64,000 bases of DNA from Thalassobaculaceae bacterium (GCA_965228875.1 OZ245843.1:3764616-3828615); one strand, 5' to 3'; positions 38,065 to 45,850 are shown, counted from the stretch's first letter. Notes: generated by a model not told the origin, from the letters alone. Numbers and translations are program-made.

Positions 38065-39330
38065 ATGCAGCGAGCACAAGATCTCGATTGGGACCTGGCT
38101 GAATCGGTCCGGAAGCACGCTCTGTTCCTGAAGCAGTACGCGGGCGGAGTGCAGGCCGATTTCCGGATGAAGACCCTGCGCGGCGCGATGCTCGCCGGCA
38201 CGGATCTGCGCCAGGGCCTGTTCCACGGCACCGACCTGCGTGGCGCAAGCTTCGCCGGCTCCAACCTCCAGGGCACCCAGTTCTCCACCGCCAGGCTGGA
38301 GCAGTGCGATTTCGCCGGAGCCAAGCTCATCAGCGCGAACATGCGCGGCGCGAACCTGAAGGGCGCCAAGCTGATGGCGGCCGACCTGACGGACGCCGAC
38401 CTGCGTCCCGCCAAGATCCAGGACCTGAACCGCAACATCGAGCAGAACGCCGATCTGACCAAGGCCGACATTTCCGATGCCAAGGTCGTGCGCACCAACC
38501 TCTCCGGGGCGAACATGGCCGGCGTGGTCGCCGTCAACACCGCCTTCCAGAGCGCGGTGATGCGCAACGTCAACCTGAACAAGGCAGACCTGTCGAAGAG
38601 CTCGTTCAAGGGGTCGGACCTGCGCGGCTCGAACCTGCGGGGGGTCAATTTCGCCGACTCCACCCTGACCGATACCGATCTCACCGGCTCCGACCTGCGG
38701 TCGTGCAACCTGGACGGTGCCGACATGGCGGGCGCCGACCTCACCGACTGCAAGATCGCCACCGGGCTGGAGACTATGGCACCGGACGTGCAGCAGAAGG
38801 TGGTGCAGCACTTCCTGTGGATCAGCTCCGGCGGCAAGAAGGGCGAGCGGGCCTCGTTCAAGGGCCAGGATCTGTCGGGCATGGACTTTTCCGGCGCCGA
38901 TCTGTCGGCCGCCGATTTCGAGGGCGCCAACCTGTCCGGCGCGAACGTGAAGCAGTGTTCGTTCCGCTTCGCCGTGCTGACAGGCGCGAACCTGGAACGG
39001 GCGGAGCTGACCGGTGCCGACCTGCGGGGAGCCTCGCTCAAGGGCGCCACCCTGGACGGGTCGACGCTGACCCGGGCCAAACTGGCGCCGATGCAGATCC
39101 TCAAGCCGTCGACGCTTGAGGTCATCCGCGAGTGGCCAGCCGACCTTTCGGGCGCGACACTGGCCGGTGCCGTCGCCCAGCGCGCCGATTTCAGCGGCAC
39201 CATCCTGGACGGGACCCAGTTCCACCATGCCGACCTGACCGGCGCGAACCTCGCCGGGGCGACGGTCGACAAGGCGGACTTCGACAACGCGGTCGGGGTG
39301 ACGCCGGAGATGATGGGCGCCACCGGTTAG
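38065..39330 (+). CDS. Pentapeptide repeat protein
   Basis: Extensive A(D/N)LxG repeats. Confidence 0.93.
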   Translation: MQRAQDLDWDLAESVRKHALFLKQYAGGVQADFRMKTLRGAMLAGTDLRQGLFHGTDLRGASFAGSNLQGTQFSTARLEQCDFAGAKLISANMRGANLKGAKLMAADLTDADLRPAKIQDLNRNIEQNADLTKADISDAKVVRTNLSGANMAGVVAVNTAFQSAVMRNVNLNKADLSKSSFKGSDLRGSNLRGVNFADSTLTDTDLTGSDLRSCNLDGADMAGADLTDCKIATGLETMAPDVQQKVVQHFLWISSGGKKGERASFKGQDLSGMDFSGADLSAADFEGANLSGANVKQCSFRFAVLTGANLERAELTGADLRGASLKGATLDGSTLTRAKLAPMQILKPSTLEVIREWPADLSGATLAGAVAQRADFSGTILDGTQFHHADLTGANLAGATVDKADFDNAVGVTPEMMGATG

Positions 39331-39507: not shown

Positions 39508-39586
39508 TTCGTTCAAAACCGTCGCCCCGCCTTCCATAGGCCTCGTGGCACATAACCGGGTGTGCCGTCGCGAGGGAGGAGCGGGG

Positions 39587-40509
39587 ATGGCGGCGCGGGT
39601 GACGACGGTGGCCTTTCGCGGAATCGAGACGGTGGAGGTCGACGTGCAGGTGCATGTCGGCGGTGGCGGCTGGCCGGGGGTCGCGCTTGTCGGTCTTGCC
39701 GACAAGGCGGTGACGGAATCCCGCGAACGGGTGGTCGCCGCCCTGCACGCCCTGGGCCTGGCCCTGCCCCACAAGCGGATCACCGTGAACCTGGCGCCGG
39801 CCGACCTGCCGAAGGAGGGCGGGCATTTCGACCTGCCGGTGGCGCTCGGCATTCTGGTGGCGATGGGGGCGCTGTCGGTCGAGGACGTGGCCGACCGCAT
39901 CGTGCTCGGCGAGCTGGCGCTGGACGGCCGGATCTCGCCGGTGGCCGGCGTGCTGCCGGCGGCGGTGGCGGCGTCGGGCAGCGGTCGGCGCGGCGTGATC
40001 TGTCCGGCGGCTTGCGGATCGGAGGCGCGCTGGGCCGACGGCATCGAGGTGGTCGCCGCCCCGGACCTGCTCTCCCTGCTGAACCACCTGCGTGGCGTCC
40101 AGGTCCTGCCGCCGGCCGCCGAGGGCGTGGTCGAGGCCGAGCCGCGCTACCCCGACCTGCGCGACGTGAAGGGGCAGGAGACGGCGAAACGGGCGCTGGA
40201 AGTGGTGGCGGCGGGAAGCCACAACCTGCTCATGGTCGGCCCGCCGGGGGCCGGCAAGTCGATGATGGCCGCGCGCCTTCCCGGCCTGCTGCCGCCGCTC
40301 ACTCCGGCGGAAGCGCTTGAGGTCTCCATGATCCGCTCGGTCGCCGGGGTCCTGAAGGAGGGGCGGATCGAGCGCGGGCGGCCGTTCCGCGATCCGCATC
40401 ATTCCAGCTCCGCCCCGGCGCTGATCGGCGGCGGCATCCGCGCCAGGCCGGGGGAGGTGTCCCTGGCGCACCGTGGCGTGCTGTTTCTGGACGAACTCGC
40501 CGAGTTCCC
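39587..40509 (+). pseudogene. comM: comM (YifB Mg-chelatase-like ATPase), 5' part, interrupted by transposon
   Basis: [42 protein letters not shown]; the frame stops inside the IS left end. Confidence 0.93.
40502..40509. repeat. Target-site duplication, left copy (GAGTTCCC)
   Basis: Identical 8-mer at 44104-44111. Confidence 0.95.
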
Positions 40510-40609
40510 CGGTATTAGGTAGCAAATGCACCTAGCTCGGAGACTGGTTCTCACCCTCATTGCTGGGATGCTGTTCGCTGCGCTAGCGGGTGGGGAGGCG
40601 AGGGCGTCG

Positions 40610-41482
40610 TCAGCATTCGTCGTTGTGCCTGTTGGGGAACTCAAACGGGACATCGGTAACAGCGTTCTTGGCTGCTTCGACATGCCCCCCCTTCAGGTTG
40701 AAGGACCAGCAAGCGCGAGTTCGATGTTTGTCTCCGAAGACATCTTCGTAGGTCATGACGCAAAACACGTAGACCCGTTCTTGGATCAGCGCCATGCGGT
40801 GAGCGTCCCCCACGCCGTCAAAGTCCGCGAAGATAGCTTGGGTGGAAAAGCTAGCTCCAGAGGAGATCGTGTTCTTTGCTTCACGAAAATCCGGTTCTGG
40901 CAGTTTCTCTCCGTCGGGCAGCGGATAAGGGAAGGCTTCGGACACCGCCGAAAATCGGCAGTTTTTGGCAGGCGTTTGACCCTTATTGGACTGAACGACG
41001 TAGAGCAGCAGGCGTTGGTTTGGCATATCGAAGAGCACACCGCCTGGAGCCAAGGAAATGTAGGCTCGAAGTTCAGTCTTAGCGTTGTTGCTGGTGATTC
41101 GGTTGGCTTCGACGGCGGCATTCGTCGCCCTAACGGTGAGGAAAATCACGACCGCCAACGCCGCGATTTCCAGTATCGTCAGGCGGACTTGATACTTAGT
41201 CCACTGAGCCTGGGTTTTGGCCGCTTCGGCCATTTGCCGTTGCTCGCAGAGATCGGCCTCATCAGTGTTCTTGGGGTTCTCGCATTCTGGCCGATAGCCG
41301 CTGCTCTCACTCCGGGGCGCGTCGCCCGTAACCGGGTTGAGCGCCAAAAGCGTATAGCCTTGGTTTGCTTCGGGCTGATGATGTTCGTTGTTAGCTTGGC
41401 GGTTATCGGTCTCTTGGGCTAGGACACCCGTCGTTAGGCATCCCCCAAGTGCAATGATGAGCAACCAATAGCGACCAGACAT
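40610..41482 (-). CDS. Hypothetical membrane protein (signal peptide plus one TM), IS passenger
   Basis: N-terminal hydrophobic stretch, Cys pair, TM LTILEIAALAVVIFLTV, ELRAYIS then a beta-rich domain. Confidence 0.7.
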   Translation of the reverse strand: MSGRYWLLIIALGGCLTTGVLAQETDNRQANNEHHQPEANQGYTLLALNPVTGDAPRSESSGYRPECENPKNTDEADLCEQRQMAEAAKTQAQWTKYQVRLTILEIAALAVVIFLTVRATNAAVEANRITSNNAKTELRAYISLAPGGVLFDMPNQRLLLYVVQSNKGQTPAKNCRFSAVSEAFPYPLPDGEKLPEPDFREAKNTISSGASFSTQAIFADFDGVGDAHRMALIQERVYVFCVMTYEDVFGDKHRTRACWSFNLKGGHVEAAKNAVTDVPFEFPNRHNDEC

Positions 41483-41664
41483 TGCAGCATGAAAGCAGCG
41501 GTGAATTTTCCGCGCGATAGTTTATTGCGGATGTTCACCTCTTTTTCGGCAACGCCGATCTCGGCCAGTCGCTCAACCAGGCCTGCGTAAGTTACGCCAC
41601 GGCGCTTAAGTTCTGCCTTCAGGAGGTTGGCGGCTCGGGATTCCCAATCGGTTTTCTCGACCAT
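41434..41664 (-). CDS. Small XRE-like HTH protein (DUF6471-like)
   Basis: LLKAELKRRGVTYAGL..NIRNKLSRGKFTAAFMLQCL; divergent from the transposase. Confidence 0.8.
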   Translation of the reverse strand: MVEKTDWESRAANLLKAELKRRGVTYAGLVERLAEIGVAEKEVNIRNKLSRGKFTAAFMLQCLVAIGCSSLHLGDA

Positions 41665-41737
41665 CGTATCGCCTACAGTGAAAAAAGTACTGTAGACGTT
41701 ACATATGCCCTTGAACCCGATACGTCAACGTACCATA

Positions 41738-41757
41738 TCCGTTACATAGGTAACGGA
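41738..41757. promoter_or_regulatory. Palindromic operator candidate between HTH gene and transposase
   Basis: TCCGTTAC-ATAG-GTAACGGA; half-site CGTTACATA repeated at 41697. Confidence 0.6.
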
Positions 41758-41768
41758 GACAGTACGAA

Positions 41769-42722
41769 ATGGCCCAACACTTCCTTCTCAGCGCGAAAGC
41801 CCGGACCCTCTCGGTGGTCCAGGTGGCGCGTATGTCGGAAGACGAGGCGCGTGCACTGTTCCGTGCCATCCGTTGGGCCGACACTGACGGCGAGCCGGTT
41901 TGCCCGCGCTGCGGCTGCTTTGCGGTCAACGAGTACAAGTCCCGCCCGATCTTCAAGTGCAAGGGCTGCGGCCATCAGTTCTCGATCACCTCGGGCACGA
42001 TCTTTGCCAGCCGGAAACTGCCGGTGCGCGATATCCTGTTGGCGATCGCTCTGTTCGTGAACGGCGCCAAGGGCATGTCCGCTCTGCAAATGAGCCGGAA
42101 CTTGGACGTTCAGTACAAGTCGGCCTACGTGCTGCTGCACAAGATCCGCGAAGTGATGGCCGCTGAGACCGCCGACGCCACGCTGTCTGGCGAGGTCGAG
42201 GTTGATGGTGCCTACTTCGGTGGTCACGTCCGTCCGGAGAACCGCAAGGAAGACCGCAAGGACCGTCGTCTGAAAGAGAACCAGACCGGCAAGCGCCGTG
42301 TCGTCGTCGTCATGCGCGAGCGTGGCGGGCGGACCCTGCCGTTCGTGTTCCGCAGCGAAGACCAGTCAGTCGGCACCATCCGCGCCCGTGTCGCCAGCGG
42401 GACCACCGTCTACGCTGACGAGGCGTCGGGCTGGGATGAACTGCACGCCGCTTACGAGACCAAGCGCATCAACCACAGCATCGCCTTCGAAGACGACGGC
42501 GCCTGCACCAATCAGGCGGAAAGCTACTTCTCCCGCCTGCGCCGTGCCGAGTGGGGCCAGCACCACCACATCAGCGGGCGCCACCTGCACGCCTACGCCG
42601 CCGAAATGGCGTGGCGCGAGGATCATCGCCGCGTGCCGAACGGCACGCTGTTCACCGCCGTTGTGGACGCCGCGCTGAACGCCCCGGTTTCGCGGCAGTG
42701 GAAGGGGTATTGGCAGCGGTAA
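41769..42722 (+). CDS. IS1595-family DDE transposase
   Basis: Zn ribbon CPRC..CKGC, HTH, EVEVDGAYFGG, VYADE, TNQAESYFSRLRR. Confidence 0.95.
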   Translation: MAQHFLLSAKARTLSVVQVARMSEDEARALFRAIRWADTDGEPVCPRCGCFAVNEYKSRPIFKCKGCGHQFSITSGTIFASRKLPVRDILLAIALFVNGAKGMSALQMSRNLDVQYKSAYVLLHKIREVMAAETADATLSGEVEVDGAYFGGHVRPENRKEDRKDRRLKENQTGKRRVVVVMRERGGRTLPFVFRSEDQSVGTIRARVASGTTVYADEASGWDELHAAYETKRINHSIAFEDDGACTNQAESYFSRLRRAEWGQHHHISGRHLHAYAAEMAWREDHRRVPNGTLFTAVVDAALNAPVSRQWKGYWQR

Positions 42723-42804
42723 TCGCTCGACTCGCCAAAACCTGCCGATTCGCCACGCACATTAAAATGTTGACGCTTGCGATATGATCACTAATTTAAA
42801 GCCA

Positions 42805-42911
42805 TGACACCCCATCAGTCTCCGCCCGGTAGACGGGTTAAACGGATGGCTGATTATTAAGACCCCAGGGACGCCTATGGCGTCCCTGTATTCTTTGAAG
42901 GGGGGCACAAA
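42805..42911 (+). ncRNA. Candidate structured leader/ncRNA upstream of NYN gene
   Basis: Promoter-like TTGACG-N16-TAATTT (42770-42797); interrupted long hairpin 42814-42854; perfect 10-bp hairpin 42866-42888. Confidence 0.45.
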
Positions 42912-43544
42912 ATGGCCCAAGCGCCGCAAGTCTCTCAGCCAAGTGCGCCAAAAATTCGGTTGTTTGTCGATTTTTGGAACTATGAGCTTGCCATGAAGCG
43001 ATCCGCCTCAGGCTTTCAGACAGACTGGAAAAAGATCGGGCCGCATCTAGCAAGCGTGGCAGCGCAAATGATTGGAGCATCTGGGCAGATTAATTACCAG
43101 GGTATGAATGTTTATGGTTCTTACAACACAAAAACAGGAAACGACCAGCCATTGAAAAAATGGGCAACGACAGTTTTAGACACATTCCCAGGCGTTCATG
43201 TGACATTTATTGAGCGGCAAAAGAAAAAAAGCCCACCTTCTTGCCCTGCCTGCCATGACGCTGTCGAAAACTGTCCGTCTTGTGGAGTCGATATGCGCGG
43301 CACTGAAGAAAAAGGTGTCGACACTCGGATGGTCACAGACATGATGAGTCTAGCCTGGGCCAATAATTATGATGTAGCTGTATTACTATCTTCCGATAAA
43401 GATTTTGTGCCAGTCGCAGAGTTTTTGCAGACGCGTGGCATCAAAGTTATTCACGGTGCATTTCCACCAAATGGTGCTGTTTTAAGTCAAAAGTGCTGGG
43501 CGAGCATAGATGTTCCGGGAGAGCGGAGTAATTTCCAACGCTAA
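42912..43544 (+). CDS. NYN (LabA/DUF88, PIN-like) RNase with Zn-ribbon insert
   Basis: FVDFWN, EKGVDTRMVTDM, LLSSDKDFVP; CPAC..CPSC insert; low GC. Confidence 0.9.
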   Translation: MAQAPQVSQPSAPKIRLFVDFWNYELAMKRSASGFQTDWKKIGPHLASVAAQMIGASGQINYQGMNVYGSYNTKTGNDQPLKKWATTVLDTFPGVHVTFIERQKKKSPPSCPACHDAVENCPSCGVDMRGTEEKGVDTRMVTDMMSLAWANNYDVAVLLSSDKDFVPVAEFLQTRGIKVIHGAFPPNGAVLSQKCWASIDVPGERSNFQR

Positions 43545-43600
43545 TTTAGGCTTTCTCCACCTAATCGCTGTCCAAGCCAACGCCTGACCGCATCGAGCGC

Positions 43601-44035
43601 CTACCCCGCCACCCACTGCTTATACGTCCCCTCGCTGGGAACCTCGCGGGCTAGCCCCTTCTCGACCAGCCGATACAGGCACGCGCCGACGCGCTTGCGG
43701 ATCAGCGAGACAGCGCGTGCGTCGTTCGGGTCCAGCCCACGGCCCTTGACCACCTCGACCGCCATCTCCAGCGTCGTCAGCGGCTCCGAGGCGTTCCGGA
43801 GTGCTCCGAGTACAAACCGCTGCATCTCGCCCCTGTAGGCGCCGTGGCGGGCTGGGAACTGCTTGGGCTTGGTCAGCGATACGTCGAGGTCCGGGGCGAA
43901 CATGTGGATGCAGTGGTCTACGTGGTCCAGGTCGATGACCAGGTCGTTCAATTGCTGCTGTAGGTGCTCGATCCGGCCGGATATCTCGCGGCGCTTCTCG
44001 ATCAGTCCCGCGACTGTGTTGGGTCTGTCTGACAT
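43601..44035 (-). CDS. Hypothetical coiled-coil plus winged-helix-like protein
   Basis: N-terminal heptads (LIEKRREISGRIEHLQQQL); C-terminal VLGALRNASEPLTTLEMA..VGACLYRLVEKGL..W pattern. Confidence 0.75.
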   Translation of the reverse strand: MSDRPNTVAGLIEKRREISGRIEHLQQQLNDLVIDLDHVDHCIHMFAPDLDVSLTKPKQFPARHGAYRGEMQRFVLGALRNASEPLTTLEMAVEVVKGRGLDPNDARAVSLIRKRVGACLYRLVEKGLAREVPSEGTYKQWVAG

Positions 44036-44103
44036 GCCCCAAGGATACGAAACCGGCGGGACTCTGCCGATATGGGGCTAGGTGCATTTGCTACCTAATA
44101 CCG

Positions 44104-44712
44104 GAGTTCCCGCGTCCGGTCCTCGACGCGCTGCGCCAGCCGATCGAGACCGGCCAGGCGGTCATCGCGCGGGCCAACCATCACGTCACCTATCCGGCCC
44201 GCTTCCAGATGGTGGCGGCGATGAATCCCTGCCGCTGCGGCCATATGGCCGATCCCGCCCGCGCCTGTTCCCGCGCGCCGCGCTGCGGCGCCGACTACCA
44301 GAATCGGCTCTCCGGCCCGCTACTCGACCGTTTTGATCTGGCAATAGAGGTGCAGGCGGTCTCGGCGGCGGACCTGTCGCTGCCGCCGCCGGCCGAGGGC
44401 AGCGCCGAGGTCGCCGCCCGGGTCGCCGCCGCCAGGGCCCTGCAGACCGAGCGGTACCGGACGCTGGATCCGACCGGCGCGGTGCGCACCAACGCCGATG
44501 CCGATGGCGAGCTGCTGACCGCCGTCGCCGAACCGGACGAGCCGGGTCGCGCCCTGATGCGCCGGGCGGCGGAGAAGCTGCAGCTCTCCGCCCGCGGCTA
44601 CCACCGCGTCCTCAAGGTCGCCCGCACCCTGGCCGATCTCGACCGGGCCGAGACGGTGGGACGGGTGCACGTGGCCGAGGCGCTAGCCTATCGGGGGAAT
44701 GGGGGTGGGTGA
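44104..44712 (+). pseudogene. comM: comM, 3' part (begins with right TSD copy)
   Basis: EFPRPVLDALRQPIETG, AAMNPCRCG, SGPLLDRFD, LSARGYHRVLKVARTLADL; rejoining gives an intact 507-aa ORF. Confidence 0.93.
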
Positions 44713-45268: not shown

Positions 45269-45850
45269 ATGCCAATTATGGCTCAATCTGACCGTGCACA
45301 AAGCCAAGAGGAACCTAGCGCAAATAGCGTGCCTGGCGTGCCCGGGCACGTGACGGATTTAGTGAATCGAGGCTTCCAGCGGATCGTCACTGATCCAGAA
45401 GATATAGAACAGCTAGTAGCCTATGGACTTTATAAAGCGGCTAAACACAAATGGGCTATTAACCAAAGCCCAAAGAAGGCTGAAGCAGATAACTATTATA
45501 AAAACGAACTTGCTAGCGAAGAAAAAATCGACTTGTACATGCAGCAAGCCAATCAAATGGTTTTAGCATATACTGACGAGCTAATTCGACGTGATATAAA
45601 GGAAATTATTACCGATTATCTTGAAGAAGAACATCTAGAAGATATCAAATCAGATTTAAGACAGGTGAAGACAAACTCTTCTCTGTTATGGAATGGCGCT
45701 GTTTCTTTAGGCACAAATATAGTTGCTTGGGCTTTAATTGTCGTACTTACTCTGATCATACTTGCGGGAATGGAGAACGGTATCAGCGTTCTCCCGACAG
45801 CCGCTAGTCAGAATGGCCAAGAACAAGTACCTGCCCCAGCAAAAGAATAA
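45269..45850 (+). CDS. Hypothetical protein with C-terminal TM (low GC)
   Basis: 193-aa ORF in AT-rich DNA; LVAYGLYK helix; TM IVAWALIVVLTLIILAG. Confidence 0.75.
   Translation: MPIMAQSDRAQSQEEPSANSVPGVPGHVTDLVNRGFQRIVTDPEDIEQLVAYGLYKAAKHKWAINQSPKKAEADNYYKNELASEEKIDLYMQQANQMVLAYTDELIRRDIKEIITDYLEEEHLEDIKSDLRQVKTNSSLLWNGAVSLGTNIVAWALIVVLTLIILAGMENGISVLPTAASQNGQEQVPAPAKE

Follow-up and report, generated by a model that had tools for sequence, protein, structure and literature searches.

What is the small structured RNA that lies directly in front of a predicted nuclease gene inside a bacterial transposon, and does it serve that nuclease? The question is raised by a stretch of 64,000 nucleotides (nt) from a Thalassobaculaceae bacterium (GCA_965228875.1 OZ245843.1:3764616-3828615; hereafter the window), in which an insertion sequence (IS) of the IS1595 family carries a gene for a Zn-ribbon protein with an NYN (PIN-like) nuclease domain. 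An initial reading of the DNA, referred to here as the sequence-only reading, had proposed that the leader of this gene is either an RNA antitoxin or an autoregulatory substrate of the nuclease. The comparisons described below indicate that the leader contains a separate RNA of about 93 nt, which is very probably a specific functional partner of the NYN protein. The best explanation, a type III-like module made of an RNA antitoxin and an NYN-RNase toxin with putative toxicity, binding and defence roles, is given an even chance, and the narrower claim that the RNA acts as an antitoxin or inhibitor of NYN is placed at even or slightly below.

The promoter that the sequence-only reading had assigned to the RNA is present at the locus (Table 1) and its position is conserved in homologues: a TTG-type -35 element was found in 67 of 82 and a -10 element at constant spacing from the motif in 68 of 82, and the best-pair score was 8.54 of 12 compared to 6.99 +/- 0.96 in shuffles. 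The 5′ end of the transcript is predicted at A42804, from a conserved CA lying 7 nt past the -10 element, the A of which was kept in 80 of 81 distinct sequences; the 3′ end is predicted to fall in the U-tract. Hairpin 1, the perfect hairpin 2 and the ACCCC runs described in the same reading were all found in place. Hairpin 2 consists of a perfect stem of 10 base pairs (bp) with a loop of 3, followed by TATTCTTT, and a terminator scan ranked 42866-42888 as the best site. The promoter, which is weak by consensus, is missing from the output of that scan because TAATTT agrees with TATAAT at only 3 of 6 positions; its support comes from its conserved position in homologues. Folding bore out the claim that the structure goes beyond chance: the 126-nt stretch gave -54.3 kcal/mol (z = -3.97) and the predicted RNA (42804-42897) gave -41.8 kcal/mol (z = -4.75), with 0 of 200 shuffles as good in either case, and the structure obtained for the RNA is the consensus of the family described below. 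A further proposal, that the C-runs pair with the G-run at 42900-42905 in the ribosome-binding region, did not hold. This pairing appears in the minimum free energy fold of the window's own sequence, but GGGG was found between the terminator and the start codon in only 10 of 74 co-oriented homologues, and the pairing was rejected. A leader peptide was rejected as well; an 18-codon open reading frame (ORF) runs from the predicted +1 in the window, but its AUG is not conserved in the alignment as judged by eye.

The sequence-only reading had named conserved, covarying structure upstream of NYN homologues as the decisive check, and the result was strongly positive. When the 150 nt before NYN start codons were viewed, the same layout was found nearly everywhere, consisting of -35 and -10 elements, the CA, an ACCC element, a covarying hairpin, an A/U-rich linker, a second ACCC element, a near-invariant hairpin (stem CAGGGACGC / GCGUCCCUG) and a U-tract, whereas the DNA 5′ of the -35 element could not be aligned among homologous loci. 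Among 81 distinct sequences, the first ACCC (alignment columns 14-17) was kept as A in 76 and as C in 77, 77 and 80, the second (columns 77-80) as A in 78 and as C in 70, 73 and 73; the U-tract had 6-8 U within 9 nt past the stem in 62 of 81.

Covariation was assessed on a MAFFT alignment of 79 sequences, which was not fitted to any structure, and on a second alignment of 82 sequences, which was fitted to the model and whose counts lean towards it. The results showed that 91.7% of cells were paired in the MAFFT alignment and 93.6% in the model-fitted one, compared to 23.8-45.9% on both when the partners were slid by 1-3 columns. Compensatory changes were found at 15 of 22 base pairs (MAFFT) and 16 of 22 (model-fitted), and 0 of 500 shuffles reached the observed values, for every measure on the MAFFT alignment and again on the model-fitted alignment. 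Broken down by helix in the model-fitted alignment, with which the MAFFT alignment agrees, compensatory changes affected 7/7 pairs of P1, 3/3 of P1b and 1/3 of P2. In hairpin 2, 99% of cells of the model-fitted alignment were paired, 5 of the 9 pairs showed compensatory changes and 2 never varied. P2 and the terminator stem are mostly invariant in sequence, and the terminator stem, which is near-invariant, is the most conserved part of the RNA. Judged by these alignments, the ~93-nt RNA is a conserved RNA family and not a chance structure.

No family in Rfam 15 matched the leader at an expect value (E) up to 10, nor was any matched at gathering score in 17 loci. A mir-5881 match fell on both strands of hairpin 2 and was discarded as noise. 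A literature search, outside which lay subscription journals and closed supplements, returned no report linking an NYN protein to a conserved RNA motif. The RNA family and its pairing with NYN both look undescribed.

To see how closely the RNA follows the NYN gene, a covariance model (R1) was used on NYN loci. One genome per species was scanned, and the best 80 of 165 confirmed stretches, with 50-65% protein identity, were taken as genome loci. By record titles these come from many groups, among them Alpha- and Gammaproteobacteria, Binatia, Vicinamibacterales, Holophagales, Latescibacterota, Longimicrobiales/Gemmatimonadota, Dehalococcoidia, Rhodothermales and Spirochaetia, and many of the genome names are ones that we take to be those of sponge or marine-host symbionts. 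The results showed that R1 matched in 79 of the 80 loci with 44-105 bits, in 78 of them just 5′ of NYN; in the 79th (L066) the RNA motif is separated by an inserted 440-aa (amino acid) transposase gene from NYN, which is truncated at its N terminus. All 12 NYN loci that had not been used to build R1 (five small plasmids, three viral contigs, two metagenome contigs, the genome G594 and an NYN pseudogene in G021) gave a match as well, with 26-69 bits. The window's own genome (G000) holds a single copy of R1, and five other whole genomes gave six matches, five at NYN and one beside an NYN fragment (residues 14-50). Among 101 relatives (G000 and 100 others), strong matches were found only in G000, in G021, where the NYN is the pseudogene, and in G047, where a relic remains. 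Three weaker matches in relatives (24-31 bits) were rejected as generic terminator-like hairpins; they have no ACCC, and no NYN was present in the fetched flanks. By covariance-model search, the RNA is thus linked exclusively to this NYN family in the genomes searched.

These data bear on the alternative that nothing special is present and the hairpins are a transposase terminator combined with chance structure; hairpins acting only as the transposase terminator had been named in the sequence-only reading as a refuting outcome. Hairpin 2 does sit 144 nt past the transposase stop codon, where it would stop read-through. However, the RNA is found beside NYN in 79 of 80 genome loci, on plasmids and in viral contigs, all without this transposase; in sister IS copies the transposase occurs and the RNA does not, and the compensatory covariation is present. 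This alternative is refuted.

The distribution of the NYN protein itself is rare and patchy. Among the 101 relatives, the sole NYN match at E below 1e-10 outside G000 was that in G021, which is interrupted by an internal TAG. No NYN match was found at E up to 0.001 in 10 genomes of the window's genus, and phage records gave no NYN match. Further loci of the type with a divergent RNA, described below, were also sought: in an even class-level sample of 400 genomes NYN occurred only in the centre genome, a phylum sample contained NYN in 1 of 400 genomes, one new, and a plasmid search returned the same five plasmids again.

The orientation of the RNA relative to NYN indicated that it is more than a 5′ leader. 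The RNA is co-oriented with NYN in 78 of 80 genome loci and in 8 of the 12 further loci, and there the terminator stem lies a median of 20 nt before the start of NYN, the distance being 15-29 nt in 65 of 74 loci. In four independent loci, however, the RNA lies just upstream of NYN on the opposite strand: the Aeromonas plasmid L108, which has an identical copy in metagenome contig L111, the Cobetia plasmid L109, the metagenome contig L112 (55.3 bits on the minus strand versus 8.5 bits on the plus strand) and the locus L131 of genome G594 (33.7 bits). As read from the sequence, all four divergent RNAs have good promoters at the family's usual distance on the reverse strand, with TTGxxx and a perfect TATAAT in L108 and L109, TTGACA, 18 nt and TAGCAT in L112, and TTGACA ... 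TACATT in L131. The RNA of L112 points at the 3′ end of the gene upstream and is therefore not a leader for any other gene, and this locus has a 115-nt spacer; in L131 a TATAAT box and GGAGG stand just before the NYN start. Because adjacency to one protein family persists while the orientation flips, the RNA is, on this comparative evidence, a separate partner RNA and not merely a leader or riboswitch. Of the original proposal, which is supported in part, the idea of an RNA partner, be it antitoxin or autoregulatory substrate, was strengthened by the four divergent loci.

The same loci bear on two cis-acting explanations. RNase III and RNase E limit their own synthesis through their own mRNAs, and the RNA might likewise be a 5′ leader that NYN recognizes or cleaves, or whose terminator it modulates, to limit its own synthesis, with no toxin-antitoxin (TA) role. 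The prevailing co-orientation is what such a leader would show and, with about 20 nt between the end of the RNA and the NYN start, co-oriented NYN would be made only by terminator read-through; the near-invariant terminator stem also suggests sequence-specific recognition. This explanation overlaps with the type III-like one, as a terminator of this sort is found in type III loci too. However, in the four divergent loci the RNA lies outside the NYN mRNA, in L131 and L112 NYN has its own TATAAT box and the long spacer, respectively, and orphan copies of the RNA persist without NYN, so that we regard autoregulation as unlikely, if still worth serious thought. A riboswitch or attenuator, in which hairpin 1 would be an aptamer for a small molecule or tRNA and hairpin 2 the expression platform, is far less probable. 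The arrangement is the expected one, a structured domain near the promoter in which unpaired nucleotides are conserved and then a terminator just before the ORF, but the RNA is found with one protein family only, is not always in a same-strand 5′ untranslated region (as L108, L109, L112 and L131 show), has its most conserved part in the terminator stem and matches no Rfam family. No conserved alternative (antiterminator) pairing was seen in the alignment, which was inspected for it by eye.

The fate of the RNA where NYN has decayed was then considered. The RNA is retained beside a broken or lost NYN in five places: L009, L066, L102, a second copy in L022 that is a 188-bp duplication without the gene, and L114. 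The last is the relic of G047 (L114 1501-3101; 70.9 bits), in which the first ACCC is changed, the U-tract is lost and AbiEi/AbiEii genes follow with no NYN; it looks as if these genes have replaced the NYN gene. Five cases of RNA without an intact NYN thus stand against one of intact NYN without RNA, and this asymmetry of decay fits a pair of antidote and poison. It also bears on a further alternative, that the RNA is not an inhibitor but either a functional RNA that depends on NYN for its maturation or a part that an active NYN ribonucleoprotein needs as subunit, scaffold or sensor. That RNA and NYN strictly occur together, whichever way the RNA points, would agree with this, and the two conserved ACCC elements, each lying 5′ of a hairpin, could be cleavage or docking sites. 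Survival of the RNA beside a dead or deleted NYN is, however, more readily understood if the RNA is an antidote than if it is a substrate or cofactor, and neither a second target nor a guide-like variable region is visible, the unpaired parts ranking among the most conserved. We consider this alternative improbable.

The protein encoded next to the RNA matches NYN domain PF01936 with 57.9 bits (cut-off 24.2; E 2.2e-15). The acidic motifs and the CxxC..CxxC insert noticed in the sequence-only reading were confirmed, Asp20, Asp137, Asp162, Asp164, Cys111, Cys114, Cys121 and Cys124 being invariant in 31 aligned homologues. A sequence search of solved structures with the NYN protein gave nothing below E 0.5. 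An AlphaFold2 model with a mean confidence (pLDDT) of 87.4 gave as its closest structural matches 2QIP, a LabA-like NYN protein (2.6e-7), and MARF1 NYN domains. No ToxN-type match was found in Pfam, NCBIfam or PADLOC, and no Abi_2/HEPN match in Pfam. The protein family is large: among 849 candidates, 724 clusters matched at E up to 0.001, and the two highest identities were 85% and 82%. With LabA-like/COG1432 NYN proteins (PF01936; 2QIP) and the MARF1 NYN domain the protein shares the fold and the acidic active-site residues; it differs from them in that its subfamily has the Zn-ribbon insert and a dedicated RNA gene. A 2017 survey of the PIN superfamily described bacterial NYN proteins as unstudied as nucleases, and the available part of its text mentions no RNA partner (PMC5499597). 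HEC-09, a PADLOC candidate defence gene, is likewise an NYN-domain candidate within defence loci, and the window protein matches its model in part (residues 117-188 on model positions 87-159 of 203; E 1.3e-10). HEC-09 has, however, another N-terminal part, and no RNA is mentioned in the portion of its description available (10.1101/2024.01.29.577857).

Type III TA systems have been described in general terms (PMC12737573, in the part available). The locus resembles ToxIN, CptIN and TenpIN in the order of promoter, noncoding RNA (ncRNA), intrinsic terminator and endoribonuclease gene, in having no protein antitoxin and in being carried on plasmids and other mobile DNA; the terminator between RNA and nuclease gene is found family-wide except in the four divergent loci. 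The locus differs from these systems in three respects: its nuclease has an NYN/PIN-like fold with a Zn ribbon and not a ToxN/AbiQ-like fold, its RNA is one structured unit and not a tandem array of short repeats (no tandem repeat occurs in 42650-43000 and no direct repeat in the leader), and its RNA gene can be divergent from the nuclease gene. Because two defining features of the known type III families, the toxin fold and the repeat array, are absent, the module is filed not as a member of type III but as one that, by analogy, would work like it. The best functional analogy is AbiF and its ncRNA. In that system (AbiF, an Abi_2 HEPN RNase, with RCd22 or AbiFr, the 'abiF motif') an RNase also stands beside a conserved structured non-repeat ncRNA. 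The abiF motif is in Rfam. The two systems differ in the fold of the nuclease (HEPN versus NYN), and their RNAs are unrelated, with no Rfam match here. According to the parts of two sources available, the AbiF toxin is neutralized by its adjacent structured ncRNA through direct contact, in cis and in trans (10.1101/2025.04.15.648962; PMC12737573).

The locus is best explained as a self-contained two-part module, in which a ~93-nt RNA with a sigma-70-type promoter and a terminator is followed about 20 nt later by the NYN endoribonuclease gene. The RNA would most likely bind the NYN nuclease and restrain its activity, as a type III antitoxin or the AbiF RNA does, and the terminator would yield abundant RNA while the nuclease is encoded by read-through transcripts only. 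Protein contacts or cleavage sites may lie in the two ACCC elements and in the near-invariant hairpin. The module travels on mobile DNA, putatively as addiction or abortive-infection cargo, and in the window it occupies the cargo slot of an IS1595 element.

Several points weigh against this explanation. The toxicity of the NYN nuclease is assumed from its fold and conserved acidic residues, and HEC-09, the related NYN candidate, gave no protection against the phages tested, according to the portion of the study available (10.1101/2024.01.29.577857). The RNA is present as a single copy and not as the tandem array of known type III antitoxins. One locus, L061 (Hoeflea marina), has an intact NYN with its catalytic residues kept and no RNA detectable within 4 kb. 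Many of the NYN loci belong to metagenome-assembled genomes from related habitats and cannot be treated as independent, and the covariation counts of the model-fitted alignment have the lean noted above. Integrase, transposase, restriction, TA or Abi-type neighbours, counted in favour of a TA-like context, were found at 18 of 44 loci, a figure with no control rate to compare.

A variant of the two-part module was also considered, in which the RNA is the sensing or specificity subunit of an RNA-gated NYN ribonucleoprotein and not a passive antidote. Two units, each an ACCC element plus a hairpin, would dock the nuclease, perhaps as a dimer, and keep NYN latent; removal or remodelling of the RNA by an RNase, RNA or protein of an invader would then free an abortive-infection RNase. 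There is, in our judgement, only a small chance that this is so. If true, it would make the pair a defence or addiction system, spread over many phyla by plasmids, IS elements and viruses, without a described relative in its RNA or its protein-RNA interface.

The carrier of the module in the window was characterized from its termini and genes (Table 1). The proposed carriage by an IS proved correct: the element has perfect 28-nt inverted repeats, an 8-bp target duplication and a DDE_Tnp_IS1595 transposase with an N-terminal Zn ribbon, and so belongs to the IS1595 family, for which an 8-bp target duplication is typical. It contains a 290-aa ORF, a DUF6471 ORF, the transposase gene, the NYN gene and a 144-aa ORF convergent with NYN. 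The 290-aa ORF has a weak PycTM-like match only (E 0.026), and the 144-aa ORF has no match in Pfam, NCBIfam or PADLOC. The element splits a comM/yifB-type Mg-chelatase gene, with Mg_chelatase, ChlI and Mg_chelatase_C Pfam matches distributed on both sides, and reading of the sequence showed that joining the flanks across one copy of the duplication restores the open frame. The window's own genome holds one full copy of the IS. A second, partial relative without NYN lies at G000:C1:2558664-2561147 (L002-L004), with a 76-bp right end at 100% identity, a left end at 84% and part of the 290-aa ORF region at 80%.

Sister IS copies in relatives retain the transposase and the 144-aa ORF, the latter at 78-79% DNA identity, and lack both the RNA and NYN; judged from these copies, the 144-aa ORF is part of the IS backbone and lies outside the RNA-NYN module. 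Between transposase and 144-aa ORF they carry different cargo, which in L122 2527-3465 (G038) is a SocA/Panacea antitoxin-domain gene with a 124-aa partner ORF and in L119 2615-3305 (G003) two small ORFs without a family, one seemingly membrane-bound. The G+C content is 44-53% in the NYN gene and leader, compared to 61-70% in the transposase and 72-77% in the host gene, and the NYN gene and leader therefore look like later cargo of the IS.

Table 1. Coordinates of the RNA, the nuclease gene and the carrier element in the window (counted from its first nucleotide)
Feature	Position	Strand	Details
RNA promoter	42770..42797	+	-35 TTGACG 42770-42775; 16-nt spacer; -10 TAATTT 42792-42797
Predicted ~93-nt small RNA	about 42804..42896	+	covariance model R1 75.2 bits, E 5.7e-20
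First single-stranded ACCC(C) element	42809..42813	+	just 5′ of hairpin 1; ACCCC here
Hairpin 1	42814..42854	+	stacked P1, P1b, P2; loop GUAGA; A-rich 3′ internal loop
P1	42814-42820/42848-42854	+	7 bp
P1b	42821-42824/42843-42846	+	4 bp here, 3 in consensus
P2	42825-42828/42834-42837	+	4 bp here, 3 in consensus
Second single-stranded ACCC element	42862..42865	+	ACCCC 42862-42866; just 5′ of hairpin 2
Hairpin 2 and U-tract (intrinsic terminator)	42866..42896	+	stem 42866-42875/42879-42888
Zn-ribbon NYN (PIN-like) nuclease gene	42912..43544	+	210 aa
CxxC...CxxC insert coding region	43242-43283	+	within NYN gene
IS1595-family transposon carrying the RNA-NYN module	40502..44111	+	3.6 kb, including target duplications
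Perfect 28-nt terminal inverted repeats	40509-40536 and 44077-44104		40510-40536 and 44077-44103 without the base shared with each target duplication
8-bp target duplication	40502-40509 and 44104-44111		GAGTTCCC; read from sequence
IS1595 transposase gene	41769..42722	+	DDE_Tnp_IS1595 8.5e-42; Zn_ribbon_IS1595 1.9e-11; NF033547 1.4e-44
Two passenger ORFs of the IS	40610-41664	-	290-aa ORF without family; DUF6471 protein
144-aa ORF, convergent with NYN	43601..44035	-	IS backbone
Split comM/yifB-type Mg-chelatase-like gene	39545-40522 and 44082-44712

Elsewhere the module was found on small plasmids, viral contigs and chromosomes. The plasmids measure 6.3-12.4 kb and have very few accessory genes besides NYN. 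In the record of the Cobetia amphilecti plasmid (L109; 8550 bp) one NYN accession occurs at two places separated by 4275 bp, as if two copies of a 4.3-kb plasmid had been joined head to tail. When ORFs on either side of NYN were searched against Pfam, covering 85 of 144 picked ORFs at 44 loci (59 were left out by size, and 6 near-duplicate loci had been dropped beforehand), no shared family and hence no conserved protein neighbour was found. An apparent neighbour cluster of 21 loci was an artefact of antisense ORFs over NYN and unrelated ABC ATPases. The claim that NYN has no co-oriented protein antitoxin thus stood, with no neighbour conserved and the 144-aa ORF assigned to the IS backbone. 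Two Rfam matches were noted near NYN, sRNA-Xcc1 at L104 3203-3287 on a viral contig, 3′ of NYN, and RNAI at L108 4679-4781 on the Aeromonas plasmid. In the window, a 193-aa ORF at 45269-45850, just 3′ of the 3′ part of the split gene, has 36-39% G+C against a surrounding 65-75% and is possibly another foreign insertion, and a 421-aa ORF at 38065-39330 consists mostly of pentapeptide-like repeats (named by eye).

Bacterial NYN (LabA-like) proteins are very numerous, and one widespread subfamily now has a concrete, testable RNA partner. This partner is about 90 nt long; its structure is defined, its unpaired ACCC elements are conserved and one of its hairpins is near-invariant. The RNA family is apparently missing from Rfam 15 and could be added to genome annotation. 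If the RNA neutralizes the nuclease, the type III-like TA systems would gain a toxin fold new to them and an RNA antitoxin that is not a repeat array, and it would be clear why the pair is carried by tiny plasmids and in the cargo slot of an IS.

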